From positions 73,384-137,383 of the forward strand of contig CAYUZS010000003.1 in NCBI GenBank assembly GCA_964448705.1: a DNA stretch of 64,000 bases. The letters run 5' to 3'. Below the pieces are notes generated by a model. That model ran no database searches and was not told where the DNA came from. It was given only the letters and a program-made list of their open reading frames with translations. The position numbers and the translations under genes are program-made. Shown here in pieces: positions 3,937 through 63,303 of the stretch; position 1 is the stretch's first letter; the number at the start of each line of letters is the position of its first letter. This DNA comes from an uncultured Gammaproteobacteria bacterium (GTDB lineage: Bacteria; Patescibacteriota; Microgenomatia; UBA12405).

Positions 3937-3938
3937 TT

Positions 3939-6868: not shown

Positions 6869-7801
6869 TTATTTATTTCCGTGATGAAATTTATCATGAA
6901 CTTCCCGTAATCTTGCATCAGTTACATGAGTATAAATTTGAGTAGTTGCGATATTTTTATGACCAAGCATTTCCTGAACGGACCGTAGGTCGGCTCCTGC
7001 TCTCAACAGATCGGTCGCCATTGAATGACGTAGAGTATGTGGTGTCGCCGCCACCGGAATCTTGGCCTGATGGACATATCTTTTTACAATGTTTTGTACC
7101 GAACGACTGGTTAACCTCGCTTTTTCGTCCGTCGAAATTAAGCCTCTTCGTTTGGAATAGTTTATAAACAATGGTTTCATTTTGTCAGTTCTTTCCCGAA
7201 GATATCTTTCCAACCACGTTGCCGCTTGTTTGGAAATAAACACCACTCTGGCCCGACCGCCTTTTCCGATCACTCCGAATTCTCTGGTTTTCAAATCTAT
7301 CTGATCTCTATCCAGGGACACCAGTTCTGACACCCGTAGACCGCTGGAAAATAACAATTCCAGCAATGCCTTGTCTCGTATCCCGATTGGTGTTGATACT
7401 AATGGCTGACTTAACAGTCTGTCGATTTGGTCGTCATTCAAAAACTTTAATGAATGATCCTTATTTTTGGGAACATCCAATTTTTCCGGCTCCATAACTT
7501 TCTTGTCATTTTTTACCAGCCATTTCAAAAACGACCTTAATACTATTACGTAATATCCCTGAGTCACTATCTTCATATCGCCGTAAACACCCGGCTGTCT
7601 CGATAAATACAATCTGAATTTTCTGATATTTTCACTATTAATATCCTTTAACGATGGTTTTTCAATTTTTAGTTCTTCCTCTAAATATTTTTCCAGCCGG
7701 TAAAGATAATGTTCATACTTTACCATTGTCAGTCGGGAACAGTTTCTCTCAATTTCCAAATGTTCCAAAAATCTTCTTATAAAAACGTGCAATTCATCCA
7801 T
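6869..7801 (-). CDS. tyrosine site-specific recombinase, XerC/XerD family
   Basis: 310 aa with N-terminal SAM-like core-binding domain and catalytic C-terminus HTLRHSMATDLL...LGHKNIATTQIYTHV. Confidence 0.85.
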   Translation of the reverse strand: MDELHVFIRRFLEHLEIERNCSRLTMVKYEHYLYRLEKYLEEELKIEKPSLKDINSENIRKFRLYLSRQPGVYGDMKIVTQGYYVIVLRSFLKWLVKNDKKVMEPEKLDVPKNKDHSLKFLNDDQIDRLLSQPLVSTPIGIRDKALLELLFSSGLRVSELVSLDRDQIDLKTREFGVIGKGGRARVVFISKQAATWLERYLRERTDKMKPLFINYSKRRGLISTDEKARLTSRSVQNIVKRYVHQAKIPVAATPHTLRHSMATDLLRAGADLRSVQEMLGHKNIATTQIYTHVTDARLREVHDKFHHGNK

Positions 7802-8355
7802 AAAGTATTCTACAAAATAAAAAACATCAATTCTAGAGCCTCTGGTGAGGTCAATGTATATTTTATCGGTATTTTAGGTATATTTCTAATACTACCCTTA
7901 AAAATCTGGTCAGGGGAGTCGGCTAAGAAATTTGAACCCGGGTTCAGGCAACCTTTGTCAGAGTCGGCAACGGAGGATTATGGTCATTTTTTATAAATCT
8001 AAATCAGCATTTTATCTTTTAAAGAAAAATAATTTTAAAAATTAATTTTAAAAATTAGCTTTTTTAACCACTCCCCCTGCCTCTTCACTTTCTTTATTTC
8101 GTGAAAGATACATTCTGCGAAATAAGAAATGTCTACTCTCTCTAAGAGAGGACTAAACAACTATTAATCTCCCGTCAACCGCACATATAGATCAATATAA
8201 AAGCTCTTTTATTTATTAATTACTCCTCTCAATTCCACCCCACTCTCCAAACCTAACAATCGGTGTATTGATACATTCGGTAAATACCGGGTTTTCCACA
8301 TAGACTATATCATAATATATCACCTGTCTTATAATATTATAGGATTTATTCTGTG

Positions 8356-8439
8356 AAAATTATAGGATATATCGTGAAAATGGCTACCCTCCTCCCCTGT
8401 CTGGGCTGTCATTAAAATTTTTTTCTGCTAATTAGCTTT
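8356..8439 (+). repeat. right copy of imperfect direct repeat flanking the recombinase (AAAATTATAGGATATAT ... GCTAATTAGCTTT)
   Basis: Collinear matches to 6633-6738. TTATAGGAT occurs at 8337 and 8360. Confidence 0.35.
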
Positions 8440-8588
8440 GCTTAGCTTTATTTATACTTGCAAAGACACTTACTTGTCTCTAAAGTTTTAATTTAAAAAA
8501 GCTCTTTCACCGTTTCCCTAAACAACTCTCTTCCTCTCCCCTATTATTTTAGTTAAAAATTGATTTTAGACTATATATAGGCACAATT

Positions 8589-9374
8589 TTATCTCCATCT
8601 TGTTATCAGAACTATTGCTGCCAATACCGCAATTGCCACCCAGATATACATTAACCAAATCCTCTTAAAAAGCCTATCCCGAATGTCAGCCTGTATCAGT
8701 CCGCTCATCATATAAATCATCGCCACCAGATAAACTGAACCTTTAAAGATTCCTGTCGGCCAAAACGAGAACGCAATCGCCATCTCAGATAATAAAACTG
8801 CCGGCACTATTACGTAAGAAACCATTTTTTTGTTTTTCCCGTCATCCGACAGTTCAATTGCTATTGCCCAAAATTGATACAAAAATACTACCACCCCGAT
8901 TAACAACGACCACAGTCCGTTTATCCAAAAACTCAGTCTATAGGAAAATAAACTGTCAAACATAAAAAACGAAGCCAAAAGCAGGATAATCAAACTCACT
9001 GTATAAGCCGCCCGATACAATGGCACTGTTTTAAAACCGATTGCTACCAAAAACACATTTTCCACCAGAAAAATTACATAAAGTATCAGTCCGAAAAATA
9101 AACTCAATATCACCGTCCAAAAAGCACTGGAGTTTAAAAAAGCTCCGAATAATCCGAATCCGACAAAAAAGCTGGTTGGCAGTAATATTGCCATAATCCT
9201 GGTATACACGCTTTTTTCAAAAATTATTCCCAGGCCAAACCAAACACAAAATATCACCAACACTATTCCCACCATCAATCCAAAATATCTGGATTCATAG
9301 GGCAAAGATATAAATACAAAAAAACCTAAAGCCGAAATCAAAGACGATATAAAGTATTTAAACCGTTTACTCAT
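8589..9374 (-). CDS. polytopic integral membrane protein, function unknown
   Basis: About 8 hydrophobic helices. Start at MSKRF gives an ATGAGTAA overlap with the yebC stop. Confidence 0.5.
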   Translation of the reverse strand: MSKRFKYFISSLISALGFFVFISLPYESRYFGLMVGIVLVIFCVWFGLGIIFEKSVYTRIMAILLPTSFFVGFGLFGAFLNSSAFWTVILSLFFGLILYVIFLVENVFLVAIGFKTVPLYRAAYTVSLIILLLASFFMFDSLFSYRLSFWINGLWSLLIGVVVFLYQFWAIAIELSDDGKNKKMVSYVIVPAVLLSEMAIAFSFWPTGIFKGSVYLVAMIYMMSGLIQADIRDRLFKRIWLMYIWVAIAVLAAIVLITRWR

Positions 9375-32283: not shown

Positions 32284-34269
32284 TTATAAACCATTTATAA
32301 AGTTTGTTCTCCAAATAGAGATATCATTTATTGTAATCAAACCATCACAGTCAAAATCTGCCCGCCAATCATTTCTATTAACTTCTCCCAGCTGTCCAGT
32401 AATGAATTCTGATCTCCAAATTGATGCATCATTAATGGTGATTGAACCACTGCAGTCAGCATTTCCTTTCCCTTTTGCCGTCGGATCATTGGCGCATTGA
32501 GTACATTTAAGTGGTAAAGCCGGACAGGCAGTCATATCTGTTGTCCAGGTACCGTTGGCTGATGGACAACAATATTGTCTGCCGCCGCAGGATGCTATTA
32601 GTTTTGCAGCACTACAAATTGTTTCATTAGCTGTACCGTCACTATCCGGAGGAGTGCAGCTTCGCAGGACACTTTGATTAAATCCGTTTGCATTAGTAAT
32701 TCCCGGACACTCTTCACGGCAGCTGTTTCCTGATCCTGTTGTTGGTGTTGCTGTTGGTGTTCTTCCGCCACCGGTTGTTGGTGTTGCGGTAGGTAATCTT
32801 ATTGAACCGCTAGTTGGAGTTAATGTTCTGGTTGGGGTTAATGTTCTGGTTGGACTTAATATTCTGGTTGGAGTTGGAGTATTACATGGATGGTCCAACA
32901 GATTTCCACAGCCTGTACCGGAATAATATCCACCAATGCATCTACAAGTTGCTGTCGGCACTGCAGTTACCGTAATTTGTCGACAACATATTCCTCCGGC
33001 AATTATTCCTGTTCTTTCATAGCCGGATCCGCAGTCAGAAATTCCGTATCGGGCCGTTGATCCGCTGGGACATGAACCTGCTAAAGTTGGAGTTGCTGTC
33101 GGTCTGCGTGTCGGAGTTGCTGTTGGTCTGGTTGTCAGAGTCGGAGTTCGTGGTATACAGCATCTTGAAGACGGAGAAGAACAATTGCTTTGTCCGACAT
33201 CAGTTTCTCCGCTGTTGCATGGTGTCCGACACACTCCAGTTGTGCCATTATACTGACAGTTATTCACCGGGGTTTGTTCACAACAAATTCCACCGGCAAT
33301 ATTTCCTGTCTTATCGTAACCCGAACCGCAATCGGAAATTCCGTATCGGGCTGTTGAACCGCTGGGACAAGCTGCTAAATTACAATCACCAGTGGAAGCG
33401 TTACACGAAGTGCTGCAGGTTTTCACAAATGTCCAAAATTTATTTGTCGACATATTGGCCTGGTTACAGTGATACAGATCATTTCCGGTGCATTTATAGG
33501 CATTTAGAGTACTACAAGCTGAAGAAGTTGGGGTCGGAGTTAAAGCTCTACAACAAATTCCCCCGGCAATTGTTCCTTCGTTTTTATATCCGGATCCGCA
33601 GTCTAGAATTCCGTATCGGGCTGTTGAACCGCTGGGACAAGCCGCTAAATTACAATCAGCTATTGAGGAATTACATGAAGTGCTGCAGGTTTTCACAAAT
33701 GTCCAGAATTTATTTGTCGACATGCTGGCTTGATTGCAGTGATAGAGGTCGTTTCCGGTACATTTATAGGTATTAACTGTACTACAAGCTGAAGAAGTTG
33801 GACCTGCCGTCGGTGCTCTGGTCGGAGTTAATGTTGCTGTTGCACAGCTGGAATCACTGACACAATTTGAAGCCGGACAAGCCGAACTGGAATTTATTGT
33901 TACTGTTGAGGAGTTACATTTCCCACTGCCGCAAGTTCTAACTGTACACTGTCTAGTTGCTGGAGTCGCTGTCGGGTTAACTACTGGCCTTTTACAAATA
34001 CAGGTGGCATAAGAACCGGAACCCGTACAGTCTTGCGGAGTAAATCCGGGACAACATGACAAACCGTTAGCATAAGTTCCACCCTCTGGGACACAGTAAG
34101 ACGCCAAATTTCTGGTATCCTGGTTATTTTGCACCAATTTTGTCGCTGCCGGAACCGCAATTGCCATCAGCAATAAGCCAATTAACAGAGGAATTTCTGC
34201 CAAACCTTTATTTTTCTTAAAAAAAACTGAAAACATTTTTTCTTGTAAAGAATGAGTCATTTTCGACAA
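32284..34269 (-). CDS. large Cys-rich repeat surface protein with PT-rich linkers and C-terminal dockerin
   Basis: 661 aa. TM helix then LVQNNQDTRNLA, two 90-aa tandem Cys-rich units and three CPSGSTARYGxxDCGSGY...IAGGICC modules. C-terminal dockerin repeats NADCSGSITINDASIW and DFDCDGLITINDISIW. Confidence 0.6.
   Translation of the reverse strand: MSKMTHSLQEKMFSVFFKKNKGLAEIPLLIGLLLMAIAVPAATKLVQNNQDTRNLASYCVPEGGTYANGLSCCPGFTPQDCTGSGSYATCICKRPVVNPTATPATRQCTVRTCGSGKCNSSTVTINSSSACPASNCVSDSSCATATLTPTRAPTAGPTSSACSTVNTYKCTGNDLYHCNQASMSTNKFWTFVKTCSTSCNSSIADCNLAACPSGSTARYGILDCGSGYKNEGTIAGGICCRALTPTPTSSACSTLNAYKCTGNDLYHCNQANMSTNKFWTFVKTCSTSCNASTGDCNLAACPSGSTARYGISDCGSGYDKTGNIAGGICCEQTPVNNCQYNGTTGVCRTPCNSGETDVGQSNCSSPSSRCCIPRTPTLTTRPTATPTRRPTATPTLAGSCPSGSTARYGISDCGSGYERTGIIAGGICCRQITVTAVPTATCRCIGGYYSGTGCGNLLDHPCNTPTPTRILSPTRTLTPTRTLTPTSGSIRLPTATPTTGGGRTPTATPTTGSGNSCREECPGITNANGFNQSVLRSCTPPDSDGTANETICSAAKLIASCGGRQYCCPSANGTWTTDMTACPALPLKCTQCANDPTAKGKGNADCSGSITINDASIWRSEFITGQLGEVNRNDWRADFDCDGLITINDISIWRTNFINGL
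33256..33795 (-). repeat. two tandem ~270-nt coding repeats inside the Cys-rich protein gene
   Basis: aa 159-248 and aa 249-338 are near-identical. DNA blocks such as ATTCCGTATCGGGCTGTTGAACCGCTGGGACAAGC recur. A third partial copy lies at 32983-33072. Confidence 0.85.
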
Positions 34270-51675: not shown

Positions 51676-52563
51676 TTAAACCCCTGCAGCTTTAATTGCC
51701 CGACCAACTTCTTCGACGATTAAATTGATCGACTTAACACTGTCATCGTTGGCTGGTATCGCCAAATCCACTTTTCTTGGATCAGCGTCAGTGTCCACAA
51801 TTGCTACCGTTTTCAGATTTCTCATCTTCGCCTCTTTATTAGCTGTTTTTTCAAAACCGGCATCAACCATAAAAACTATATCAAAGAGCTTCTCCAAATG
51901 TGTCAAACCGCCGATAATTCTTTCCAGTCTGATTTGTTCCTTATTTAAATCCAACAATTCTTTTTTAGTTTTATCCGTATACAAATTTTTACTTAATGCT
52001 TCTTTAGTATCGTTGAATTTTTTTATATTTTTGCGAATTTGTTCCCAGTTGCTGATTGTTCCGCCCAGCCATCTGTCGGTTACATAAGCCACACCGGCAT
52101 CTTCGGCTACTCTTTTTACTACTTCTCTGGCTTGTCTTTTGGTACCTACCAACACAATTTGTTTGCCGTTTCTTCGGGAATTATATATATAGTTGCAAGC
52201 TTTCTCTAATCCATCCAAAGTCTTAACCAAATCGATAATCTGAATTCCGTCTTTGGCTATATAAATATTTTCTTTGGCTTTAGGATGAGTTTTGGAAATT
52301 TTGTGCCCTAAATGACAACCCGCTGCTAACAAATCTTTTAATCCTATAGTTAAAGAGTATTTCTTATCTTCTTTAACCAACTCTTTTTTAACAACTTCCT
52401 TTTCTGTCTGTTCTGCCACCTTAGCGCTGGCCTTATCCAATTTAACTTTCTCGTTAAGTTTTTTAATGTTTTCAGCAGTAATATTGCTCTGCTTTTTGGC
52501 CTTAACTACCAATGCTTTTTTAACCAGCTTTTTGCCGGTTCTGTTGACTGTTTTTGTTTTCAT
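51676..52563 (-). CDS. rpsB: ribosomal protein S2 with ~70-aa Lys-rich N-terminal extension
   Basis: S2 core begins at LLAAGCHLGHKISKTHPK. It is preceded by a K/V/E-rich extension with no internal Met. Confidence 0.9.
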   Translation of the reverse strand: MKTKTVNRTGKKLVKKALVVKAKKQSNITAENIKKLNEKVKLDKASAKVAEQTEKEVVKKELVKEDKKYSLTIGLKDLLAAGCHLGHKISKTHPKAKENIYIAKDGIQIIDLVKTLDGLEKACNYIYNSRRNGKQIVLVGTKRQAREVVKRVAEDAGVAYVTDRWLGGTISNWEQIRKNIKKFNDTKEALSKNLYTDKTKKELLDLNKEQIRLERIIGGLTHLEKLFDIVFMVDAGFEKTANKEAKMRNLKTVAIVDTDADPRKVDLAIPANDDSVKSINLIVEEVGRAIKAAGV

Positions 52564-52697: not shown

Positions 52698-52946
52698 TCA
52701 CAGCTGGAATTGTCGGGTGTATCTTACCGGTCGGACATCTATCACTTCCCTCCCGGTTATCTTATCAATATAAGGTCCCGATACTGACGGACAACAACTT
52801 TCTCTGAAAGTTCCCATATCAATTGTGATTATCTCTTTCAGTGAAATATCGAAATTTTTTTGGCCCTGTTGTAAAGCTCTTAAATGAATCTCCGTTAGAC
52901 AATTTCCTAACGTTTGTTTGCATATTTCACATTTTTCAATTTTCAT
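52698..52946 (-). CDS. hypothetical small Cys-containing protein
   Basis: 82 aa with CEICKQTLGNC near the N-terminus. Last gene of the ORFan operon. Confidence 0.35.
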   Translation of the reverse strand: MKIEKCEICKQTLGNCLTEIHLRALQQGQKNFDISLKEIITIDMGTFRESCCPSVSGPYIDKITGREVIDVRPVRYTRQFQL

Positions 52947-52959
52947 ATTTTTGATTAAT

Positions 52960-53400
52960 TTATAATTTATTTTCTCTCGCTGAAATAAAAAATTTTCCTT
53001 TCTCCACCTTACTTCCCTGCATCACCGTTAATACCCCTTTATCAGTCCGTAAACACATTACCTCCGTAGTTTCATCTTCTTTAATTTTACCCCTAGTTTC
53101 ACAATATTCTTTATAATTTTTCCAGTCTTGTATTTTCCCCCCGATTTTTTTCCCGGTTAATCTTTTTATATATTCAAAAGTATCTTTCCTCATTTCACAA
53201 AGACTGCAATTAGGTTCCATTCCTCCGGCGAACGGACAAATCTTTCTCGGTACCTCTCCCCTTAAAACCGGACACTGTCCCAATACAAAATTTCTCGAAT
53301 CGAGGGCATCTTCATTTTCCATATATCTTAATACTTGATTTACACCTTCAATCGGCAGTGTTAAACAGTTAATTTCTATTGTTCGGCGGAATGTTGACAT
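52960..53400 (-). CDS. hypothetical Cys-rich protein
   Basis: 146 aa with CPVLRGEVPRKICPFAGGMEPNCSLC. Its start abuts the upstream stop. Confidence 0.4.
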   Translation of the reverse strand: MSTFRRTIEINCLTLPIEGVNQVLRYMENEDALDSRNFVLGQCPVLRGEVPRKICPFAGGMEPNCSLCEMRKDTFEYIKRLTGKKIGGKIQDWKNYKEYCETRGKIKEDETTEVMCLRTDKGVLTVMQGSKVEKGKFFISARENKL

Positions 53401-54545
53401 TACTGACCTCCCCCTGCAGAGATTTTTTTATATGTTTCATTTTTTATTTCCAAATATCTTTGCCTGCTGGCTGCGTTCGCGGCAGCAATCGCATTTCTTA
53501 CCTCTCTTGGAGTCATCGATAAGTCAGGTGATCCGCTAATTTCACCCAATAATCTGTATGTTGTATAAAGATTCAACCAGGATGCCGTCTGGATTGCTCC
53601 TGCCAAACCGGTAATTGCCAGCATTGGAATTGCCGTTCCTGCAACCAAATTTGCCTGTTGAGCCATCACTATCGATCTTGAAGCTGCTGCCATTGCCTGT
53701 ACTGCTGCCGTGTCAAACATATCTGTCGCAGTTGCCTGCAGCACTCCTTTAATCGCTTCATTTGATTCCTTAGCCATTATCGGTATTTTTGACAGCCTGG
53801 TTTTTTCCCTAACAATTTCTTTCGCTATCTCACTTACACTTCTATCCCCCATAGATAATGCCGCTATCATACCCTGTCCTAATTTAGAAAGGTTGTCCTG
53901 AATCTCTTTTACTTCTTTGTCCATACCTAATTGTTTATCATATTTATCGGCATTATCCGCCAATTTTGATCCGCTAGATTTTATTATTTTTCCTGCCGTT
54001 TCCAACATTTTTCCATTTCTCTCCACTGCCCTATCCAAACTGGTCATATTTTGCAATACTGCTTTTTTACTATCGGCCACCACCTTTACTAAATCCACCC
54101 AAGGTTCAAATATTATCGGATATTCTTTGGCTATCTTAGCCATATTTGAGCTACCTCTCTGTTTTGCCAGCGACTCACAAATCTCAAATGCTATTCTCGA
54201 TCTCTCTACCAAATCCTTATTCGGATCCATCACTTTTATCAAATCTTTAGTTGCCACACTCAAATCCACCGCTAAATTTCCACCGGCAATATTAACCTCT
54301 AAACATGTCTTAATTAAAGTCGCATAATAACTGCCGGATAATGCACTGGTATCTAATCCTGTTCCCAAACCCAGATTGGCCATTTCTTTAATCACCCACT
54401 GTTTCTGTTCAAACGTTTCTCTCGGTCCTCCGAATTTTTCAATTTCCTTGCTCTCAATCATTTGATCCCGCAAACTCAGCGCCACATTTTGCACCGGAGC
54501 CGGCTCCACAGTACGATTTCTTAATCTCTCAATAAAATTTGGCAT
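53400..54545 (-). CDS. hypothetical, predominantly helical protein with Ala-rich hydrophobic C-terminal segment
   Basis: 381-aa ORF. No family recognised by eye. Confidence 0.5.
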   Translation of the reverse strand: MPNFIERLRNRTVEPAPVQNVALSLRDQMIESKEIEKFGGPRETFEQKQWVIKEMANLGLGTGLDTSALSGSYYATLIKTCLEVNIAGGNLAVDLSVATKDLIKVMDPNKDLVERSRIAFEICESLAKQRGSSNMAKIAKEYPIIFEPWVDLVKVVADSKKAVLQNMTSLDRAVERNGKMLETAGKIIKSSGSKLADNADKYDKQLGMDKEVKEIQDNLSKLGQGMIAALSMGDRSVSEIAKEIVREKTRLSKIPIMAKESNEAIKGVLQATATDMFDTAAVQAMAAASRSIVMAQQANLVAGTAIPMLAITGLAGAIQTASWLNLYTTYRLLGEISGSPDLSMTPREVRNAIAAANAASRQRYLEIKNETYKKISAGGGQ

Positions 54546-54689: not shown

Positions 54690-54989
54690 CTAGCCTCCAT
54701 CCAGTCCTTGCAGCCACTCCCTGACGGGGGTGACCAAGAATGCTAAATTCTCAATCGCCAGCAGGGTCAATAAAGCCATGCTGACAAACCAGATCCCCAT
54801 CATCGATAAGATAATGGCGGCACAAACCAACAACACTTCGAGTGCAGATAAGAATCTGCTACTTTCGAAGGCCGCCAATGTGGCAACAACTGCCAGTAGT
54901 ACCATCGCCAGTACGTTCGTTTCCTCCGATGTACCAATCAGGTACATCGAAAAAAACAGTAAACCCGCTTGAATTATATTTTTTAACAT
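54690..54989 (-). CDS. small 3-TM membrane protein
   Basis: Start at MLKNIIQAG, preceded by a purine-rich tract. Three hydrophobic helices and GC-enriched coding sequence. Confidence 0.45.
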   Translation of the reverse strand: MLKNIIQAGLLFFSMYLIGTSEETNVLAMVLLAVVATLAAFESSRFLSALEVLLVCAAIILSMMGIWFVSMALLTLLAIENLAFLVTPVREWLQGLDGG

Positions 54990-55245: not shown

Positions 55246-56280
55246 TCAATCGTCCAAGCTTACTCTTCTACCCGCTATATAATTCACCGCAGGTGAATAG
55301 AAATACCTGTCATAATAATCCAACATTGCCCCAGACCAACCGGACATAACCAATTGACTAAACGCTTTTAAATTATCTCCACCAATCTTATTGCTAACAC
55401 CAGAATTATAATTTTCAGAAAAGTAGGTAGCTAGCTGTGCTGAAATTAACGCTGTCTTTTCAATAAAAGGCACATATACTCTCTTCATATTCTTAATCAT
55501 ATCGGCAGCCAATCCAGCATTTGTCCTTACCTTTTTTCCTGGTTCAAATTTCTTCCACCCCCATTCTGGATAGGTCGCCCCTCCCAGTCTCCCTTCAACC
55601 AGGGCAGAAAAAGTACTAGTCCGTGACCAGTAACCGCCAGTTGTCCCATCCTCATCTACCAGACCTCCTCCATGAAAACCTCTCTTAATTTTCGAAGCTT
55701 CATTAAGAATGAATAAACCGCCGGCAAAACTGTCCGTCAGATTTCCGACTTTATTCCATTGAGATAAACCCATATCCCGGTTATAAAAAAACAATGGCGA
55801 ATAACCTCTCGTCCATGTCGGATATTTATTCAGATTTATATCTTCTTTGCCAGTCGGCACCACCATAATGTCTGCCATCCTCCAACCATTGCCTATCTCT
55901 ATTGTTGGAGACATCTGATGTAATTGGTATTCTTTTCCATTAACCACCCTTGTTGTTAACATGTTAGATTCAATAACTGGATCTAAAGTAAACCTAGTCG
56001 TCAATTCTCGATTATTAAACGCCCTCCACATATTAGTCACTTCAAATTTTGAATAATCACCCCACTGCGAAATTAACTTTGAAGTTCTTGCCATCCAGGC
56101 AGAGTATTTTGAGGTATCACTAAACAAACTCTTCTCGCTTACTATCTTAACACCCTTAAAAGCACCTTTCCTATCAAACTTAACCAGTGGATTGTCATCA
56201 ATCATTTTTGGAATCAATCCACTGGCCATCAAAAAGACCAATGGGCTTCGGCTAACTAATTCATTTCGACGTTCAATCAT
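55246..56280 (-). CDS. hypothetical soluble protein (~344 aa)
   Basis: Long ORF. Start at MIERRNEL lies 7 nt after the upstream stop. No family recognised. Confidence 0.5.
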   Translation of the reverse strand: MIERRNELVSRSPLVFLMASGLIPKMIDDNPLVKFDRKGAFKGVKIVSEKSLFSDTSKYSAWMARTSKLISQWGDYSKFEVTNMWRAFNNRELTTRFTLDPVIESNMLTTRVVNGKEYQLHQMSPTIEIGNGWRMADIMVVPTGKEDINLNKYPTWTRGYSPLFFYNRDMGLSQWNKVGNLTDSFAGGLFILNEASKIKRGFHGGGLVDEDGTTGGYWSRTSTFSALVEGRLGGATYPEWGWKKFEPGKKVRTNAGLAADMIKNMKRVYVPFIEKTALISAQLATYFSENYNSGVSNKIGGDNLKAFSQLVMSGWSGAMLDYYDRYFYSPAVNYIAGRRVSLDD

Positions 56281-56287
56281 ATTTAAT

Positions 56288-56488
56288 TCAACCCCTTTGG
56301 ATTTTTTCTCTAGAAACAATTACTCCTCCCAGTTTCAAAGCCGCTTGAACCACTGGTCCATATCCACCTTTTACCACTGACTCCACTACTGGCATTTTGC
56401 TTTTTCCTGCCGGGAAAAAATGTCCGGCTTCAGCTTCAATTTCTGCCATTTGTCTACCAGTCGGATACATTCCTTCTTTTGGTTTCAT
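56288..56488 (-). CDS. hypothetical small protein
   Basis: 66-aa ORF, first after the structured RNA region. Confidence 0.35.
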   Translation of the reverse strand: MKPKEGMYPTGRQMAEIEAEAGHFFPAGKSKMPVVESVVKGGYGPVVQAALKLGGVIVSREKIQRG

Positions 56489-56530
56489 TTTTTTATTTGA
56501 TTAAATATTAATTTAATAAATTTCCAAACG

Positions 56531-57231
56531 ACAACCTGCAAAACAATTTTTCCACCACTAGGCGGCTCTTTTTTTTCTTTTTCCACATACTGTGGGGGAA
56601 GGCTTTCGCCCCCCCCACATATACCCTACCGTGGGGTTCCGTCAAATGACGGAGAATCCCACTGGAGCGACCCTAGTCCATTTCGGTCGGCCTCCTTTTG
56701 GGCCCCCCGAATATCAGGAGACTCACCGAGCTCTATCTCTCGGCATCGAGAAAAAAATTTGCAACGGGAGCAATGACCTTCCGGCTGCTGACACTCGCTC
56801 GGTGAAGGTGGTTGTTGAAACACTAACATTTTGCCACCTTGCCCTGGGTAACGCCTTTCCGACGTCGTAGTCGGTTTTCTTCTTTTTTCTTTTGATTTTC
56901 TTTCTGTTTCTTGTCGCTTTTACACATTTGAAGCCCCTTTCTTTTGGTCGAGGAGACCCGATCTTTTTCACCTTCCCCTATGGAAGTGAAACCTCGAAAA
57001 ATCCGTTTCTACGAACTTTTCGAGGCCCACTTCTACTCCCTGCCCGAGTTTTGGGAAGGGTTGGGAAAGAGTTAGAGAAGGGTTAATTTAGTTTTGCAGG
57101 TTGTTAAAGTGCAACCCGGCTAGGCCGGATTTGCCATCCGCCGATGAGGCGGAAGTTTCTCGACTTCAACAGTCCCGCATTCATTGTTTCCATACCGCTT
57201 TTGGTAATCGGCGGTACTGCTGTTTCGAATT
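56531..57231 (-). ncRNA. candidate large structured RNA or giant 5' leader, unclassified
   Basis: ORF-poor, GC-enriched region. A 14-bp long-range helix (56531-56544 with 57091-57104) encloses ~545 nt of hairpins. A GAAA tetraloop and G-U wobbles appear only on the minus strand. A minus-strand promoter lies at 57238-57265. Confidence 0.45.
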
Positions 57232-57237
57232 AGACTT

Positions 57238-57265
57238 ATAATATCACACTATCATGAATATTCAA
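57238..57265 (-). promoter_or_regulatory. sigma70-like promoter TTGAAT-16nt-TGaTATTAT
   Basis: Read on the minus strand. Predicted start near 57231. Confidence 0.35.
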
Positions 57266-57268
57266 TAC

Positions 57269-57295
57269 ACATAAGAGCGCATTCTGCTCTTATGT
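57269..57295. promoter_or_regulatory. perfect 10-bp inverted repeat ACATAAGAGC-N7-GCTCTTATGT (candidate operator)
   Basis: Lies between divergent transcription units. No flanking U-run on either strand. Confidence 0.4.
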
Positions 57296-57465
57296 AATTT
57301 ATGTGAGATTATACGAAAAAAATAGTTTTTATCCCCCACCAGATTCCTTACAGATTTTTCTGTTGCCTCTATAAACTTAACTCCCGTTTTCATTTTTCAG
57401 ACTAACACATTTTCTAATAATCATACAATATGAAAATAAACACCATCTTTAATATATAATTAACC

Positions 57466-59694
57466 ATGTCTTCTAATTCTGCCTTCACTTTCATGGAAGT
57501 CCGTCTTCCACAAGACAACGAAACTACTCTCGAATCCATGTCCTCTCTCTTGTCCAACTTTACTCAATTTGCCAAACTCAGTTTTTGGGAAAAATTATCC
57601 GGCAAACATTCTCTGGTAGCTTCTCTTGAAGTTGTCCTTATCAACGGTCAAATTCATTTTTATGTTGTCGTCCCCGTCCAAAATTACGATTTCTTTCGTT
57701 CCCAAATTCTCGCCCAATACCCCTCCGCCGTCATCAAAGAATCAAATAATTATTTAATTGACGCAGCAAACAATTTTTCGGAGCACAGCGAACGCGAAGT
57801 TCAATCTCCATCGAACAAGCCCGAAGGTAGCGAGCACCGCAAAAATTTGTTTGCCAGTCAATTAGCTTTAGCCCGCCCATACTCCTATCCCCTCAAAACC
57901 GCCCGTGATTTCCGAGATACCGACCCTCTCTCTTCAGTTCTGGCTCCCCTTTCCCGTTCCACTTCTTCCTCCGATTTTTTTCTCTATCAAATTTTAATCA
58001 GCAATGCTCCTAAAAATTGGCAGGGTAGTATTATTTCCGTCATTCAAAATGGAGTTTTAGTCGACAAAGAAAAAAATTTCCGTCAGGCCCATCCCGACAA
58101 ACAAGTTTTTGAAACCAAAATTCAGTTCCCCGGTCTGTTAACCCAGATCAATATTCTTTCCAATAATCCCACTCTCATCAGTTCGGTCTCCTCCTCTTTT
58201 GGAATCTACACCAGTCCTCGGGGCAATTTTATTCGTACCGTCTCTCCCGGTCTTTTTACCCGTAAAAAAATTCTCAAATCAATTGAAAATCGCCAGTTAA
58301 CCATCAACACCCAAGTTCTAAACACTGAAGAACTGGCTGTTCTTTGGCATTTTCCCAATCAACTCACCAAACTTCCCAACATCGCTTGGGGTAAAAAACT
58401 CTACGCCGATCCGCCGGAAAATCTGCCGGTAGCCACCGGTCTTAGTGATGAAGAAAAATCTCATCTCACCTTTTTTGGCAAAACAGAATTTCATAATCAG
58501 GAAACTATTTTCGGTATCAAAGAGGGTGAAGACCGCCGTCGACATACTTATATTATCGGTAAAAGTGGTACCGGAAAATCAACTTTAATTGCCAACATGG
58601 CTATTGATGACATCCGCAAGGGCCGTGGTGTCGCTATTATCGATCCTCACGGAGACCTTTGCGACAACATCCTCAACTATATTCCCGCCTCCCGCCTCAA
58701 CGATTGCTGTTATTTCAATCCCGCTGATCCCGACTATGTTTATCCTCTAAATGTTTTGGAAGCCAAAAATGAATCTCAGGCAGAACTGGTGGCTTCCGGA
58801 GTTCTTTCTATTTTCAAAAAACTTTACGGCAATTCCTGGGGTCCCCGATTGGAATATATTTTAAGAAATGCCATTCTTACCCTGGTCTTCACCCCGGGTT
58901 CGGACATGACCCATATCGTCGAGATTCTTACCAACAAAGTCTTTCGCGCCAAAGTAGTCGATCAGCTTAAAAATCAAACTCTCAAAAATTTTTGGCTCAA
59001 CGAATACAATGTCATGGATGAAAAGTTCCGGGTGGAAACAATTTCTTCGATCCTCAACAAAGTTGGACAATTTATTGCTTCATCTAATATCAGAAACACC
59101 GTTGCCCACGCTCATTCCAAAATCAATATTGAAGAAATAATGAATCAAAAAAAGATTCTTATTGCTGATTTATCCTCCGGAAAATTAGGTGAAGACAACT
59201 CTGCTCTTCTCGGCGCCATGCTGATTACTCAAATCCAGTTGGCCGCCATGAATCGGGTGTTCCAATCTCAGGACGAACGCTCTGATTTTTACCTCTATGT
59301 TGACGAGTTTCAAAATTTCGCCACCGAAGCCTTTATTAAAATTCTCTCTGAAGCCCGCAAGTTCAAACTTAATCTTATTGTCGCCAATCAGTATATGAGT
59401 CAGCTGGACCGAACCATTCAGGATGCCATTTTTGGCAACGTCGGCTCTTTCCTTTCTTTTGTCGTCGGCAACCAGGATGCTTTTATTCTTCAAAAAGAGT
59501 TTGGCACCAAATTCCCCGCCGAAGATCTGGTTAAAATCGGCAAGTACCAAATAATTTGCAAACTCAGCATTGATTCCGAAACCACCCAGCCGTTTTATGC
59601 CACCACCCTGCCTCCTCTGGATTGCAAAAACCAACAAAAGGATAAACTGATCAAAGTTTCTCAGGAACGTTGGGGAAAGAAAAAGAATTCATAG
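57466..59694 (+). CDS. TraD/VirD4-like (T4SS coupling protein / FtsK-HerA superfamily) ATPase with ~340-aa uncharacterised N-terminal domain
   Basis: Walker A IIGKSGTGKST then AIIDPHGDL, Walker B FYLYVDEFQNF and LIVANQYMSQL. No TM helices seen. Confidence 0.75.
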   Translation: MSSNSAFTFMEVRLPQDNETTLESMSSLLSNFTQFAKLSFWEKLSGKHSLVASLEVVLINGQIHFYVVVPVQNYDFFRSQILAQYPSAVIKESNNYLIDAANNFSEHSEREVQSPSNKPEGSEHRKNLFASQLALARPYSYPLKTARDFRDTDPLSSVLAPLSRSTSSSDFFLYQILISNAPKNWQGSIISVIQNGVLVDKEKNFRQAHPDKQVFETKIQFPGLLTQINILSNNPTLISSVSSSFGIYTSPRGNFIRTVSPGLFTRKKILKSIENRQLTINTQVLNTEELAVLWHFPNQLTKLPNIAWGKKLYADPPENLPVATGLSDEEKSHLTFFGKTEFHNQETIFGIKEGEDRRRHTYIIGKSGTGKSTLIANMAIDDIRKGRGVAIIDPHGDLCDNILNYIPASRLNDCCYFNPADPDYVYPLNVLEAKNESQAELVASGVLSIFKKLYGNSWGPRLEYILRNAILTLVFTPGSDMTHIVEILTNKVFRAKVVDQLKNQTLKNFWLNEYNVMDEKFRVETISSILNKVGQFIASSNIRNTVAHAHSKINIEEIMNQKKILIADLSSGKLGEDNSALLGAMLITQIQLAAMNRVFQSQDERSDFYLYVDEFQNFATEAFIKILSEARKFKLNLIVANQYMSQLDRTIQDAIFGNVGSFLSFVVGNQDAFILQKEFGTKFPAEDLVKIGKYQIICKLSIDSETTQPFYATTLPPLDCKNQQKDKLIKVSQERWGKKKNS

Positions 59695-59711
59695 TGTAGT
59701 AGAATAAATTT

Positions 59712-59912
59712 ATGAACGATAAAGTCAATTCTGAAGCCATTCCCTACAACCCTAATCAAATAGAACCTCAAATCATTGATCCTCACACCATTGGTCGTAT
59801 ATCTGCAGCTACCCGTGTTTTTGAGACAGTCCCTGTCAACACTAGAGAGATAATCGATCGTGCTGCTGCCAAAACTGCCCTAGAACAGATCAAAAAACAA
59901 AGGTCAGGCTAA
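59712..59912 (+). CDS. hypothetical small protein
   Basis: 66-aa ORF 17 nt after the ATPase gene. Confidence 0.3.
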   Translation: MNDKVNSEAIPYNPNQIEPQIIDPHTIGRISAATRVFETVPVNTREIIDRAAAKTALEQIKKQRSG

Positions 59913-60057
59913 TTTTTTGTCAACACATTTTCTCTAAAGTAGGAATTTTTTCCCCAACCCTCAAATTATATCCTTTAGCCGGCCTCAAAGAAATTCCTTG
60001 ATTTAACTTTCTTCTCTTTTCATAATCACCCTACATTACATATTAACTAAGTAAATT

Positions 60058-60276
60058 ATGGCCACTTCCAATGCTGAACTTATAGAAAGATTAAATCAAA
60101 CCGGTTCACATATTGTCAATTCTAAAAAAGAAGCCTGTTCTATTTGTCCTTCACTTCCTATTTGCCGTAAGGTTCGTTCCTGTGAACATGTCAGAATTGA
60201 ACCTGGTGATCGAACATGTCTTGAAACTTTAAAATCCGAAGAAGAAACTTCACTTTATAAAAAAATAAAACGCTAG
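60058..60276 (+). CDS. hypothetical small Cys-motif protein
   Basis: 72 aa with CSICPSLPIC (C-x2-C-x5-C). Confidence 0.35.
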   Translation: MATSNAELIERLNQTGSHIVNSKKEACSICPSLPICRKVRSCEHVRIEPGDRTCLETLKSEEETSLYKKIKR

Positions 60277-60345
60277 TCTAAATTTGCCTCTTGACACATC
60301 TTATAAGACATCCTATATTTAATTATTACTAATTAAATAATTCAC

Positions 60346-60522
60346 ATGTCAGAAAAAAAGTTCACTCCTGAATCGGCAGTGAAACCTACCTCGGCATCTC
60401 TGCCGGAAACCATAAAGATCGTAGAATCAGGCGATAAACTAGGGATAGCCATTAGGAAAATTATTCCTCTTGATGCCACTCCGGAAGAACTCCAGATCCT
60501 AGACTTGATACTTAATAATTAA
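60346..60522 (+). CDS. hypothetical small protein
   Basis: Hand-translated 58-aa ORF MSEKKFTPESAVKPTS...LDLILNN, below the track cutoff. Confidence 0.25.
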   Translation: MSEKKFTPESAVKPTSASLPETIKIVESGDKLGIAIRKIIPLDATPEELQILDLILNN

Positions 60523-60691
60523 TCAACCTATATAAATATGCCAGAAAAATTTATAGCCCCTAAAACTTTTTATAAGATAGAATCTCCTACTAGGATTGAT
60601 TTGGAAGTTATTTCTCCCAAACCTAATTTTAGCGGAGAAATTCAAATTCGTTTGCCCGCCGATAAAAAATAAGTTATTTTTTCAAAAAACT

Positions 60692-60883
60692 ATGGCAGAT
60701 TGCAAAGAATTTAACTCCATGTTCGCTGTCGAGGGTAGTTTAAAAACCTGTGGAGTGTGCAGTAAAATAAATGACTGTCAGCTCCCAATGGCACTTCAGA
60801 GGAAGCCATCTATGGAACGCAGTCTCAAACTTCCTAAGCAGGAAAAAGATTTTTACCCTCAATATCCTAACAAAAATCACTAA
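60692..60883 (+). CDS. hypothetical small Cys-motif protein
   Basis: 63 aa from MADCKEF, with CGVCSKINDC (C-x2-C-x5-C). Confidence 0.3.
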   Translation: MADCKEFNSMFAVEGSLKTCGVCSKINDCQLPMALQRKPSMERSLKLPKQEKDFYPQYPNKNH

Positions 60884-60897
60884 TTTTCGTTAACAGC

Positions 60898-62889
60898 TTA
60901 CGGTCGTTTCCATGCTGCCCACTTACAGTTTGGATAATCCGAACAGCCGAAGAATTTTCTCCCGGTTTTAGTCTTTCGAACCACACCGTCTTTTCCGCAT
61001 ACCGGACATTTAAAACCCGCATCTTCTTGGTATTGACGGGTATATTTGCAGTCAGGAAACCGGCTGCACGACACAAATTTTCCGAATTTTCCCACTCTGA
61101 TCACCAACTCCCCTTCATGGCATTCCGGACATTTTTCACCGGTTTTTTCCACTTCAACTTTCACCCTGTCTGCCGTCTTTTCTACTATTTTAACTTCGCC
61201 TCCAAATTTCTTCCAAAATGTTTCCATCATTTTTTTCCAATCCAATTTGCCCAAAGCTACTTTATCCAAACTTTCCTCCATTTCTGCTGTAAAAGGCAGC
61301 GACATTATTTCCACAAAGTTTTTAACCAAAAATTTAGTTACCGCTGTTCCCAAGCTTGTCGGTTTAAAACGTCCCTCATCCTTTTCCACATATTGTCTCA
61401 CTTGAATCGTAGAAATAATCGGTGCGTAAGTTGACGGCCTGCCGATCCCCTGTTTCTCCAAACTGGCCACCAGAGAAGCATCTGAATATCTTGGCGGAGA
61501 TTGAGTTTCCGACTCTTCAATTTTTATTTTTTGGCTCTTAATTTTTTCTCCAATTTCCATTTTTGGCAGCATTTCTTCTTCAAACTTTTCTCCGGAAATT
61601 TTTAGGAATCCGTCGAATAACATTCTTATTCCGACTGATTTAAATAATCCGGTTCCATTGGAAAAATAAACAGTGGTATTTTTCATTTTTGCCCCTGCTG
61701 CTTGGGTCGCCACTGCCCTTTTCCAGATCATTTGATAGAGTTTTAGTTCTTTGGCATCGACTTCCTCCGGGTTTTCTTTTGATACATTTGTCGGTCTGAT
61801 TGCCTCGTGTGCCTCCTGGGCATTTTTTGAAGTATTTTTATAGGTCCTTACTTTGCCGGCTACATATTCCTCTCCCCATTTGTCAGCAATGTAGTTTCTG
61901 AATTCATCAATCGCCTTAGCCCCCAAATTGACCGAATCGGTACGATGGTAGGTTATCAACCCTTTTTCGTACAATCGTTGCGCTAAGGTCATTGTCTGCT
62001 TTCCCGACCAGCCAAATCTCCTGGCAGCCGTTTGCTGCATTTTAGAAGTGGTAAACGGAGGCAATGGAGTTCTGTTTATTTCTTTTTCTTCAATTTTATC
62101 GATTATGAATTCTTTGTTAAGCCCGGCCACAAATTTATCCGCCTCTTCTCTTAATCCAAAAATAGATTTTGTAAAACTGTAGTCACCATCAAATAATTTC
62201 AGTTTTTGGCTAATATTTACATTTTTATCATTTACTTTAATCAAATCTGCACTAAAAGCGTTTTTACCTTCCTTTTTCAGGATTGCCGTTATTTTGTAAT
62301 ATTTTTCTTTTTTAAAGGCTTCAATTTCTTCCTCTCTTTCCACAATTAGTCTCACTGCTACGCTTTGGACTCGTCCGGCGGACAAACCTTTTCTTATTTT
62401 TTTCCATAATATTGGGCTTAACGAATATCCGACTACTCGATCTAAAACTCTTCTTCCTTGTTGAGCATTAACTAGATCCATGTCTACTTTTCTTTGGTTT
62501 TTCAGAGCTTCTTCTACTGCTGCTTTGGTAATCTCGTGAAAAGTAATCCGGGAAATATTTTTTTCTGTTTTCCTCTTCGTCTGATTTTCTAAAATCCATT
62601 GAACATGCCAGGAAATGGCTTCTCCTTCCCGATCAGGGTCGGTTGCCAAATATATATTTTTAACTTTTTCTGCCGATTTAATTAACGAATCAACCACTTT
62701 CTTTTTTTCCCGGTCAACCACATAGTCCACCACAAAACCATTCTCCACTTCCACTCCCATTTTACTTTTCGGCAAATCCCGCAGGTGGCCGACAGTAGCT
62801 ATCACCTCATAATCAGCTCCCAAATATTTTCCAATCGTTCGCGCCTTGGTCGGAGATTCCACTACTAATAAATTTTTCATACTTGCCAT
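60898..62889 (-). CDS. topA: DNA topoisomerase I
   Basis: 663 aa with a Toprim N-terminus, the active-site region ITYHRTDS and C-terminal C4 zinc ribbons CPECHEG...CSRFPDC and CPVCGKD...CSDYPNC. Confidence 0.95.
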   Translation of the reverse strand: MASMKNLLVVESPTKARTIGKYLGADYEVIATVGHLRDLPKSKMGVEVENGFVVDYVVDREKKKVVDSLIKSAEKVKNIYLATDPDREGEAISWHVQWILENQTKRKTEKNISRITFHEITKAAVEEALKNQRKVDMDLVNAQQGRRVLDRVVGYSLSPILWKKIRKGLSAGRVQSVAVRLIVEREEEIEAFKKEKYYKITAILKKEGKNAFSADLIKVNDKNVNISQKLKLFDGDYSFTKSIFGLREEADKFVAGLNKEFIIDKIEEKEINRTPLPPFTTSKMQQTAARRFGWSGKQTMTLAQRLYEKGLITYHRTDSVNLGAKAIDEFRNYIADKWGEEYVAGKVRTYKNTSKNAQEAHEAIRPTNVSKENPEEVDAKELKLYQMIWKRAVATQAAGAKMKNTTVYFSNGTGLFKSVGIRMLFDGFLKISGEKFEEEMLPKMEIGEKIKSQKIKIEESETQSPPRYSDASLVASLEKQGIGRPSTYAPIISTIQVRQYVEKDEGRFKPTSLGTAVTKFLVKNFVEIMSLPFTAEMEESLDKVALGKLDWKKMMETFWKKFGGEVKIVEKTADRVKVEVEKTGEKCPECHEGELVIRVGKFGKFVSCSRFPDCKYTRQYQEDAGFKCPVCGKDGVVRKTKTGRKFFGCSDYPNCKWAAWKRP

Positions 62890-62895
62890 TGTTAT

Positions 62896-63303
62896 CTATT
62901 GTAAACTGTGTGTCAAGTCGGTCATTTCCAATAAAGGTACTGCTCCGTTTTTAATCAGATAATTTGTCATTCGTGAATTTTCATCAATAATCCTTCCCGG
63001 CACTGCCCATACTTCTTTCCCTAGATCTAAAAAACATTTGGCTGCCAATATGGTTCCGCTTTTCAAACTTCCTTCAATTACTACCAACAAATCGGAATAA
63101 TTAGCCAAGTCATTATTTAATTTTTCAAAATTATCCCCCTTAAACACTTTATCCGCTCCTAATCGGACCACTTCCCGGTTACAGCCGGCCACTAAAATTG
63201 TCACCACCTCCGCTTTATCTTTCAGCTCCTTCATCACCATCCCGATTACTGTTTTCCCGTAAGGACTCATCCTCCGACTCCCTATTATCGCCACCCGTTT
63301 CAT
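62896..63303 (-). CDS. miniature DprA/Smf-like protein
   Basis: 135 aa with AIIGSRRMSPYG and KSGTILAAKCFLDLGKEVWAVPG, which resemble the DprA Rossmann core. dprA-topA synteny. The central region is missing. Confidence 0.5.
   Translation of the reverse strand: MKRVAIIGSRRMSPYGKTVIGMVMKELKDKAEVVTILVAGCNREVVRLGADKVFKGDNFEKLNNDLANYSDLLVVIEGSLKSGTILAAKCFLDLGKEVWAVPGRIIDENSRMTNYLIKNGAVPLLEMTDLTHSLQ

Follow-up and report, generated by a model that had tools for sequence, protein, structure and literature searches.

The 64-kb stretch of DNA analysed here (the window; contig CAYUZS010000003.1 of assembly GCA_964448705.1, with positions counted from its first letter) carries, at 57466-60883, the gene of a soluble, 742-aa NTPase that belongs to the VirB4/VirD4 (FtsK-HerA) superfamily (57466..59694, + strand), followed by five short open reading frames (ORFs), m1 to m5. 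This locus is best explained, with a probability of roughly 0.6, as an orphan core gene for an ATPase of the kind found in type IV secretion systems (T4SSs), beside which separate, variable slots for mini-genes share an address with no obligate partnership. The family to which the ATPase belongs is known from Patescibacteria and functionally uncharacterised; new are its predicted VirB4-like N-terminal fold, its fixed core position combined with exceptional conservation, the lineage-specific mini-gene cassettes beside it, with their conserved regulatory DNA, and two unannotated families of Cys4 proteins.

A constrained core gene at the rpsB/topA site

The closest database relatives of the ATPase are labelled Candidatus Shapirobacteria/Microgenomates, and its setting was compared among 76 genome loci encoding ATPase relatives, with neighbours mapped by tblastn. 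All through the Shapirobacteria loci the genes stand again in the order rpsB(-)/ATPase(+)/topA(-)/dprA. The left edge of this conserved syntenic frame is formed in the window by rpsB (51676..52563, - strand; Pfam Ribosomal_S2) and the right edge by topA (60898..62889, - strand; Toprim/Topoisom_bac), which is convergent with the ATPase gene. rpsB lies upstream of the ATPase in 35 of the 76 loci, across a gap of 175 bp to 9 kb, and topA lies downstream in 64, across 7 bp to 2.8 kb. Twelve of these 64 loci have the ATPase directly abutting topA, with no small genes between them. Across Shapirobacteria genomes the ATPase is 62-84% identical, and it is better conserved than TopA in 50 of 51 loci and than RpsB in 28 of 32. 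In Ca. Shapirobacteria the ATPase is a core gene under strong constraint, inherited vertically and fixed at the rpsB/topA site. Because of this fixed position and high conservation, the "island" to which a sequence-only reading of the window had assigned the ATPase resolves into two variable slots flanking a constrained resident gene.

A coupling-protein motor joined to a predicted VirB4-like domain

By its motifs and profile matches, the C-terminal half of the ATPase (aa ~335-742; 58468..59694, + strand) is a TraD/VirD4/TrwB-type motor, as the sequence-only reading had proposed. The motifs on which that proposal was based were confirmed: Walker A (GKSGTGKST, residues 365-373), IIDPHGDL (391-398), Walker B (YVDEFQNF, 611-618) and ANQYMSQL (640-647), which aligns with GLQSTSQL of TrwB. 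Between Walker A and Walker B lies an all-alpha insertion of seven predicted helices at ~436-546, a feature of coupling proteins, modelled with moderate to good confidence (predicted local distance difference test score, pLDDT, of 65-87). A type IV coupling protein (T4CP) P-loop domain with Walker A, Walker B and C-terminal motifs is present, and the motor half is matched by Pfam TrwB_AAD_bind (3e-7, span 357-649), TraG-D_C and DUF87, by the NCBIfam models SXT_TraD (8e-12) and VirD4-like CD1115 (1.6e-8), with TrwB as the best sequence match in the PDB. The family is large, comprising 21,070 representative clusters at 50% identity, of which 5,500 match with E<=1e-30.

No 19-residue window of the ATPase reaches a Kyte-Doolittle mean of 1.6, and because the hydropathy maximum (1.59, at residue 51) stays below this value and falls inside predicted beta-strands, the protein has no transmembrane (TM) anchor, in agreement with the earlier claim that the N-terminal TM helices of canonical coupling proteins are missing. 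In this respect it differs from VirD4, TrwB and TraD, which carry such helices where the ATPase has a 330-aa soluble domain of predicted VirB4-like fold. Those coupling proteins are, moreover, borne on plasmids or integrative and conjugative elements (ICEs), whereas the ATPase is a core chromosomal gene with no relaxase or T4SS genes nearby.

The N-terminal domain (aa 1-330; 57466..58455, + strand) is a soluble alpha/beta domain for which the precomputed Pfam label is DUF8128, a name that matched no paper in a literature search. When it was searched by Foldseek, six or more chains of TrwK were ranked first, with a probability of 1.00, and the domain is accordingly modelled as having the fold of the VirB4/TrwK N-terminal domain. 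The earlier description of a soluble N-terminal domain of about 340 aa and of unknown function needs revision, as the domain is not fold-less: it belongs to DUF8128 and has a predicted VirB4 fold, with which a protein can associate with the membrane although it has no TM helices. VirB4 proteins have no TM helices, and structures from R388 and pKM101 show their N-terminal domain docking on VirB3/VirB8. The two-domain VirB4 plan, in which a docking-type N-terminal domain precedes a C-terminal ATPase without TM helices, is matched by the ATPase, and a VirB4-like N-terminal fold would explain its "missing anchor". The predicted architecture is, thus, a VirB4 body plan fitted with a VirD4-like motor. 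It differs from VirB4, TrwK and TraC in having no VirB4 sequence signature (Pfam CagE_TrbE_VirB, AAA_10 and P-loop_TraG and the NCBIfam VirB4 models gave no match at E<=0.1) and no adjacent gene recognised as VirB3/PrgI.

Relatives within type IV secretion clusters

No VirB4, VirB6 or relaxase gene was found in the 64-kb window, the large proteins that were scanned being housekeeping proteins, which bears out the earlier statement that none is nearby; furthermore, tblastn of the window with the PrgI and VirB4 sequences of related T4SS clusters gave no match. More distant relatives were collected by a metagenome scan with a diverse alignment, which gave 80 loci with ATPase identities of 33-76%. 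In three of the loci so compared (L090, L093 and L094), full-length homologues that are 44-46% identical to the ATPase are encoded inside PrgI-VirB4 T4SS clusters, together with a PrgI/VirB3-like protein (PF12666, 4.9e-9), a VirB4-type ATPase (P-loop_TraG, 4.9e-26 in L090; AAA_10), a protein of 1,200-1,330 aa without a Pfam match and a polytopic membrane protein. Genuine VirB4-type genes thus stand as separate proteins beside these relatives. The PrgI-like gene of these clusters (L090 2139-14150, L093 and L094) is fused to a CarboxypepD_reg domain.

Orphan VirD4-type T4CPs encoded far from virB4 have been described in the same phylum, in a study that reports 5,713 VirD4-type T4CP homologues from 2,918 Patescibacteria genomes, about two per genome, of which 148 lie near virB4 (Quinonero-Coronel et al., Microb Genom 2025, PMC12102498). 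These proteins and the ATPase share the NCBI annotation [quoted passage not shown] and the combination of DUF8128 with TrwB_AAD_bind. The VirB4-like N-terminal fold, the rpsB/topA position, the conservation and the mini-gene cassettes are not mentioned in the passages of that paper that were consulted. The Patescibacteria T4SS is the only T4SS known to be essential for growth (PMC12857230).

The downstream mini-genes

The five ORFs downstream of the ATPase, of 66, 72, 58, 44 and 63 aa, have coordinates that match an independent gene call taken from a public contig identical to the window over 11.8 kb, and their earlier description was accurate. Direct tblastn of the flank proteins against the 76 orthologous loci gave matches only for m2 (in two loci) and for a 3-TM membrane protein of the upstream flank. 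Taken alone, this first search suggested that the mini-ORFs are not conserved; listing of the ORFs in the gaps, clustering, hidden Markov models (HMMs) and position then recovered m3 and m4.

What emerged is a recurring cassette on the + strand, in which zero to four Cys-motif genes are followed by famA (55-82 aa), famB (40-50 aa) and often a third gene with a basic tail; the series famA, famB and third gene, which encodes tiny, hydrophilic proteins, corresponds to m3, m4 and m5. m3 (58 aa; 60346..60522, +) is a divergent famA member (MSxExxGY/TPE ... MPExR ... followed by an acidic/hydrophobic C-terminus) and occupies the famA slot, which always lies between a conserved promoter and famB. By BLASTP, its entire length aligns with the protein in the corresponding position of locus L003 (36% identity, E 3e-7); in a leave-one-out famA HMM it is not significant on its own (E 0.71). 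m4 (44 aa; 60538..60672, +) is a famB member (MSEKPxFFYKxE..GRxNxL) and was recovered among 3,724 ORFs at E 1.3e-5 by a famB HMM from which the window sequence had been left out; famB occurs in 19 loci, always on the + strand and downstream of the ATPase. m2 (72 aa; 60058..60276, +) is a Cys4 protein (C27-x2-C30-x5-C36 ... C54) with positional homologues in L007 (47% identity) and L047 (41%), both of which keep the four Cys, and with nine database relatives, all of them hypothetical proteins of Shapirobacteria.

The two remaining ORFs have no detectable relatives. m1 (66 aa; 59712..59912, +), an orphan candidate ORF present in the gene call, has no homologue in the 76 genome loci or the 80 metagenome loci and no family match; as it starts only 18 nt after the ATPase stop codon, it is probably co-transcribed with the ATPase. 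m5 (63 aa; 60692..60883, +), which carries a C-x2-C-x5-C motif, is likewise in the gene call and fills the third cassette slot, and is an orphan by sequence, with no homologue in either set of loci. Membership of m5 in famC, plausible by eye from a basic ...YNSHPPKP tail, was rejected when the famC HMM gave no match, and an alternative reading of m5 from a TTG start (95 aa, 60596-60883) overlaps m4. Differences among homologues follow the order of codon positions 3>1>2, a coding pattern, in four families, m2, m4 and the upstream gene c67 among them. Conservation and codon pattern thus indicate that several of the mini-ORFs, namely m2, m3 and m4 as well as c67, are real genes. Neither a signal peptide nor a TM segment was found in the mini-proteins, and none matched a known adaptor family.

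Ahead of m3-m4-m5 lies a sigma-70-type promoter, TTGACA-17-TATATT (60291..60319, +), with an 11/12 match to the consensus. The extended pattern has no second copy in the window, where none is expected by chance, and each of 30 other Shapirobacteria loci (among L002-L072) has it exactly once, downstream of the ATPase and on the + strand. The alignment of 21 sequences has 22 invariant columns, among them spacer positions (TTATARG ... CC before the -10 element) whose invariance suggests an operator or other regulatory site. With a conserved promoter of their own ahead of m3, m3 to m5 would form a separate transcription unit. The noncoding DNA of the flanks is better conserved than the tiny genes there, the cassette promoter exceeding the genes behind it.

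The TAAAT-rich spacers that had been noted before each mini-ORF reflect mostly the general AT-rich start context of a genome that is poor in Shine-Dalgarno sequences throughout, AT content upstream of the start being 77% for 52 long genes and 84% for the mini-ORFs. Even so, TAAAT itself is commoner before mini-ORFs, standing before four of the five compared with eight of the 52 long genes (p=0.006), and to this extent the observation held.

The upstream slot

Upstream of the ATPase, a divergent minus-strand unit of small genes is headed by a conserved promoter, TTGAAT-16-TATTAT with TG (57265->57238, -). Behind this extended -10 promoter lies an element of 86-137 nt that resembles a leader or small RNA and has the layout AUUCGAAACAGCAG-CCGC-loop-GCGG-UAYGGAAAC ... 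variable hairpin ... UAACAAYCUGCA; promoter and element (~57100-57265, -) together head a unit comprising c67, p66m and p344. Promoter and leader are conserved at 81-91% by blastn, and their core words occur once, on the minus strand and always upstream of the ATPase, in 9 other loci; in the variable hairpin the sequence changes and the hairpin is kept. A scan of 56480-57470 against Rfam gave no match, and identity with a known noncoding RNA was thus rejected. RNAalifold detected no covariation in the element, in which the stems are invariant and so leave no covariation to see. On its sequence and position, the element at 57100-57265 is a candidate leader or small RNA.

Within the unit, c67 (56626..56829, -) encodes a 67-aa Cys4 protein (C13-x6-C20-x2-C23-x5-C29, then R30) and is absent from the public gene call. 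It lies in a GC-richer stretch that first looked non-coding and is preceded by a Shine-Dalgarno-like AAGGTGG. Ten positional homologues were found in other loci, and P10, the four Cys and R30 are invariant in the resulting 11 sequences; its eight database relatives are all unannotated hypothetical proteins of Shapirobacteria.

In other genomes, the upstream slot is filled by arrays of genes of about 70 aa, and five to six small genes on both sides of the ATPase recur. In L079 (the L013 genome), for example, six consecutive genes of ~70 aa lie upstream (2776-4440, -) and five downstream (7679-8959, +), four of them being Cys-motif genes in a row, an illustration of the extent to which both slots can grow. 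Elsewhere (L002-L071) the upstream cargo includes AbiEii (5), Peptidase_M23 (4), PIN (3) and DUF4143/AAA_14 (3) proteins, serine recombinases (2), SLT transglycosylases (2) and subunits of type I restriction-modification (R-M) systems, and about three quarters of the 114 upstream-slot ORFs scanned have no Pfam match. This cargo has the profile of an integration or defence hotspot. The possibility that the variable upstream genes constitute a hidden, divergent T4SS was rejected, with M23 found in 4 and SLT in 2 of the 114 members and most lacking a Pfam match. Small proteins with 2-4 TM segments occur upstream of the ATPase in 14 loci only and fall into unrelated clusters, and the example in the window, a 99-aa 3-TM protein 2.5 kb upstream, matches neither Pfam PrgI nor any other family; these sporadic and heterogeneous proteins did not bear out a VirB3-like partner.

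Cys-motif mini-proteins

Among all six-frame ATG-started ORFs of 30-150 aa in the window, only four contain C-x2-C-x4-7-C, every one of them in an ATPase flank. The motifs reported earlier, CSICPSLPIC in m2, CGVCSKINDC in m5 and CEICKQTLGNC in the 82-aa protein p82 (52698-52946, -), are present, and c67 is a fourth ORF that had been missed. The same motif was counted among ATG-started ORFs of 35-130 aa across the Shapirobacteria loci. It is carried by 21 of 157 ORFs on the downstream + strand (odds ratio 47, p 2.5e-18) and by 20 of 329 on the upstream - strand (odds ratio 20, p 1e-11), relative to 5 of 1537 among all other ORFs, a reference that consists mostly of spurious ORFs and not of bona fide small genes, so that the contrast is partly one of real gene versus non-gene. 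On the antisense strands of the same gaps, the motif occurs in none of 53 downstream ORFs and in 2 of 263 upstream ORFs.

The x5 spacing predominates, a C-x2-C-x5-C core being present in m2 and most flank ORFs, often as C-x2-C-P. Two patterns can be distinguished. m2-type proteins follow ...TG.H...C-x2-C-x5-C...P...C, with C27, C30 and C54 invariant and C36 nearly so, and c67-type proteins follow QQPP.P.EC-x4/6-C-x2-C-xFFxxC-RE, all 11 sequences keeping the four Cys and the Arg; the first spacer is exactly C-X6 in 3 of the 11 and C-X4 or C-X7 in the others. The suggestion that the Cys proteins form a single paralogous family was not upheld. Comparison of the two types by hhalign gave a probability of 4.5%, with only the motif in common, and m5 and p82 align poorly and have no homologues.

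The spacing C-Xn-C-X2-C-X5-C is that of the [4Fe-4S] motifs in WhiB-like proteins and in the EndoIII/MutY loop. c67, with C-x6-C-x2-C-x5-C, has the same spacing as the EndoIII/MutY loop, and the C-x2-C-x5-C core is shared with WhiB-like proteins, which are likewise small four-Cys cytoplasmic proteins; the flank proteins differ in a spacer that varies from 4 to 7 residues and in the placement of the first or fourth Cys in the two families. Homology with either group was rejected as not significant. hhalign to WhiB1 gave E 0.064 and a probability of 0.9%, Pfam Whib was matched by one of the 11 members at E 0.04, and GVWGG is absent; hhalign of c67 to E. coli Nth gave E 0.11, with no HhH-GPD domain, leaving a likeness of motif only. 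Because Cys quartets are conserved in proteins that appear to be cytoplasmic, it is reasonable to infer that the Cys4 mini-proteins are metal-binding knuckles (Zn or Fe-S).

Linkage between the ATPase and the mini-genes

If the locus is an orphan core gene beside variable slots, the ATPase would form a hexameric ring, would be held at the membrane by protein contacts of its VirB4-like N-terminal domain, much as VirB4 is held on VirB3/VirB8, and would use the energy of ATP to pass a substrate, DNA or protein, to a Patescibacteria T4SS encoded elsewhere in the genome, or to energise that system in another way. The downstream slot holds, in a Shapirobacteria subclade, a cassette under its own promoter, and the upstream slot a divergent minus-strand unit with its promoter, leader, c67 and genome-specific cargo; regulatory DNA is kept while coding content changes almost beyond recognition. 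The link of the mini-proteins to the ATPase would then be positional and lineage-specific rather than an obligate functional partnership. In line with this view, the cassette promoter is present in 28 of 64 loci, mainly where the ATPase is at least 72.7% identical to that of the window, and absent from 36, and sister lineages with an equally conserved ATPase have no small genes beside it. In the 80 loci of distant homologues, the small proteins of the window have no match and no cassette was found, Cys-motif ORFs are at background (1/182 and 1/187, about 0.5%) and the promoter occurs once. Sister lineages and distant homologues have neither the cassette nor the Cys ORFs beside them, so that a functional tie of these to the ATPase is conjectural. 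Two expectations of the sequence-only reading thus held in part: the mini-ORFs are conserved beside homologous ATPases for m2, m3 and m4 in related genomes, but are absent from roughly half of the Shapirobacteria loci and from the neighbourhoods of distant homologues, and the Cys motif is linked to the ATPase flanks, by a 20- to 47-fold enrichment, within Shapirobacteria but not beside distant homologues. Judged by the refuting condition that came with that reading, the partnership does not hold beyond a single subclade.

Several observations weigh against this interpretation, and the composition of the reference ORFs noted above is one of them. No relaxase or T4SS gene lies within 8 kb of the orthologue in the 76 loci, and because none is present there or in the window, a T4SS role for this paralogue is an extrapolation. 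The T4CP homologue of Ca. Southlakia epibionticum is described as non-essential where other T4SS genes are essential (PMC12102498), which fits poorly with the extreme conservation of the ATPase in Shapirobacteria. As to the architecture, the VirB4-like fold comes solely from a predicted structure, the N-terminal profile had no sequence match in the PDB at E<=10, and in the full-length model confidence is no more than moderate over the motor half (pLDDT about 60-70). Finally, the concentration of Cys mini-genes exactly at the ATPase flanks is unexplained if they are mere neighbours.

It is this last point that gives weight to a functional module, in which the mini-proteins would serve the motor as adaptors or regulators or be translocated by it, and their divergence would be the mark of an arms race with the host cell. 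Adaptors of this kind have precedents in DotL with IcmS/IcmW/LvgA/DotN and in Cag-beta with CagZ. Enrichment of the motif is confined to the outward-facing strand of each flank, all four Cys-motif ORFs of the window lie beside the ATPase, arrays of five to six small genes recur on both sides in other genomes, m1 probably shares a transcript with the ATPase, and the combination of conserved regulatory DNA with diverging coding sequence suggests that the units are expressed and under unusual selection. Such a module is nonetheless unlikely, given that the cassette has its own promoter, is absent from 36 of 64 Shapirobacteria loci (12 of them with the ATPase touching topA) in which the ATPase is just as conserved, and is absent beside all homologues of 33-54% identity; the mini-proteins also have no signal peptide, TM segment or known adaptor family. 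That the mini-ORFs are no genes at all, but chance ORFs in AT-rich intergenic DNA with a coincidental Cys motif, is very improbable. The orphan status of m1 and m5 and the failure of m3 in the leave-one-out HMM would agree with it, but an independent HMM finds m4, the Cys of m2 and c67 are conserved in their homologues, m3 can be aligned from end to end with its positional counterpart and has a conserved, near-consensus promoter ahead of it, four families show the codon pattern of coding sequence, and the motif is absent or rare in antisense ORFs of the same gaps.

Two further explanations concern the ATPase itself. It could be a housekeeping DNA translocase independent of any T4SS, that is, an exapted soluble pump of HerA/FtsK type acting in segregation, repair or DNA uptake. 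Its conservation in excess of TopA and RpsB and its fixed place next to topA-dprA would suit such a role, as would the published remark that the T4CPs of Patescibacteria may be "exapted for other functions" (PMC12102498). A gene for a protein with Sigma70_r4 and HARE-HTH domains lies directly upstream, on the same strand, of distant ATPase homologues (33-54% identity) in 17 metagenome loci (L115, L118, L121, L124, L127-L129, L132-L134, L139-L141, L143, L146, L156 and L157) and in the same position in one Saccharibacteria locus, L078; its product may be a conserved DNA-binding partner of that distant branch. Homologues also exist in phages, which have no T4SS: gp156 of Bacillus phage G (JN638751.1, 90958-93111) is homologous over aa 39-716, thus over both domains (23% identity, E 2e-32), and SPO1-like phages encode partial homologues covering aa 268-715. 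Sequence profiles, however, favour a T4CP over HerA or FtsK, the N-terminal domain is predicted to resemble that of VirB4, a T4SS-specific module, and the closest non-orthologous relatives are inside T4SS clusters. Compared with HerA/FtsK translocases (defence HerA, DndH/DptH and TdpA), the ATPase lacks a HAS-barrel and FtsK alpha or gamma domains, and it has no NurA, Sir2 or Dnd partner beside it, which together make this reading improbable. Still less can be said for a mobile-element or defence remnant, such as a decayed ICE, a prophage or the core of a HerA/MADS-type anti-phage system. PADLOC matched the ATPase with mad8 (5.4e-18) and HerA (1.1e-7), PHROG phrog_5156, a family encoded by Firmicutes phages, matched its motor half at 4e-63, and the upstream slot elsewhere holds AbiEii, PIN, type I R-M, serine recombinase and M23/SLT hydrolase genes. 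Both PADLOC matches cover the motor domain only, and assignment to a defence system was rejected on this ground; none of the HerA/MADS partner genes (NurA, Sir2, DUF4297 or other mad genes), nor a relaxase or integrase, was found in the window. Across a class-level lineage the ATPase is inherited vertically at one chromosomal site, with a conservation that exceeds that of ribosomal protein S2, and the mobile and defence genes are confined to the variable slot, with no linkage to the ATPase across genomes; a remnant is for these reasons highly unlikely.

Under the preferred reading of a core ATPase beside variable slots, the absence of an anchor, conservation above that of ribosomal protein S2 and the relatives in PrgI-VirB4 clusters combine into a testable model of a peripheral ATPase that would dock by its N-terminal domain. 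By this prediction, the commonest orphan T4CP type of Patescibacteria, a group that accounts for a large share of bacterial diversity and depends on host cells, would carry a docking domain like that of VirB4 instead of a membrane anchor. The flank cassettes illustrate cleanly how conserved regulatory DNA can drive mini-proteins that are hypervariable. Should the mini-proteins be substrates or regulators, they would provide a handle on the effector biology of uncultured episymbionts; should they be neither, the locus is an ordinary core gene beside two variable slots. A bolder conjecture, and a long shot, is that the DUF8128 ATPase is an unrecognised hybrid of VirB4 docking domain and VirD4 motor, in Shapirobacteria an essential translocase independent of T4SS clusters, whose flanks serve as expression platforms, constant in promoter and leader, for fast-diversifying mini-proteins, a new Fe-S/Zn Cys4 family included, that are recognised or exported by the motor, or regulate it, in episymbiosis.

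Other genes of the window

Behind c67, the minus-strand flank continues with genes that are present in the gene call and specific to this genome: p66m (66 aa, 56288-56488), p344 (344 aa from ATG, 55246-56280), p381 (53400-54545), p146 (52960-53400, with 7 Cys) and p82. None of these five has a significant family match or a homologue at any other locus, and p344 and p381 were rejected as VirB6 candidates for want of the TM content expected of VirB6. Between p344 and p381 lies the 3-TM membrane protein, identified by hydropathy (54690..54989, -; 99 aa from the ATG at 54989, 128 aa from a TTG), which has a homologue in L009. Its promoter, TTGACT-17-TATATT (55249->55221, -), is conserved in L007, L009 and L024 though the proteins diverge.

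The remainder of the window consists of housekeeping genes, including gyrB, gyrA, dnaB, dnaX, cysS, hisS, frr, tsf, rpsB, topA, dprA and a gene for a penicillin-binding protein. Amid this well-annotated stretch, a 661-aa ORF (32284-34269, -) matches no Pfam family at E<=0.001. The DprA-like gene beside topA (62896-63303, -) encodes only 135 aa, and its counterparts in related loci 126-215 aa. Typical DprA proteins are much longer, and the 135-aa protein may be a reduced, Rossmann-only form.

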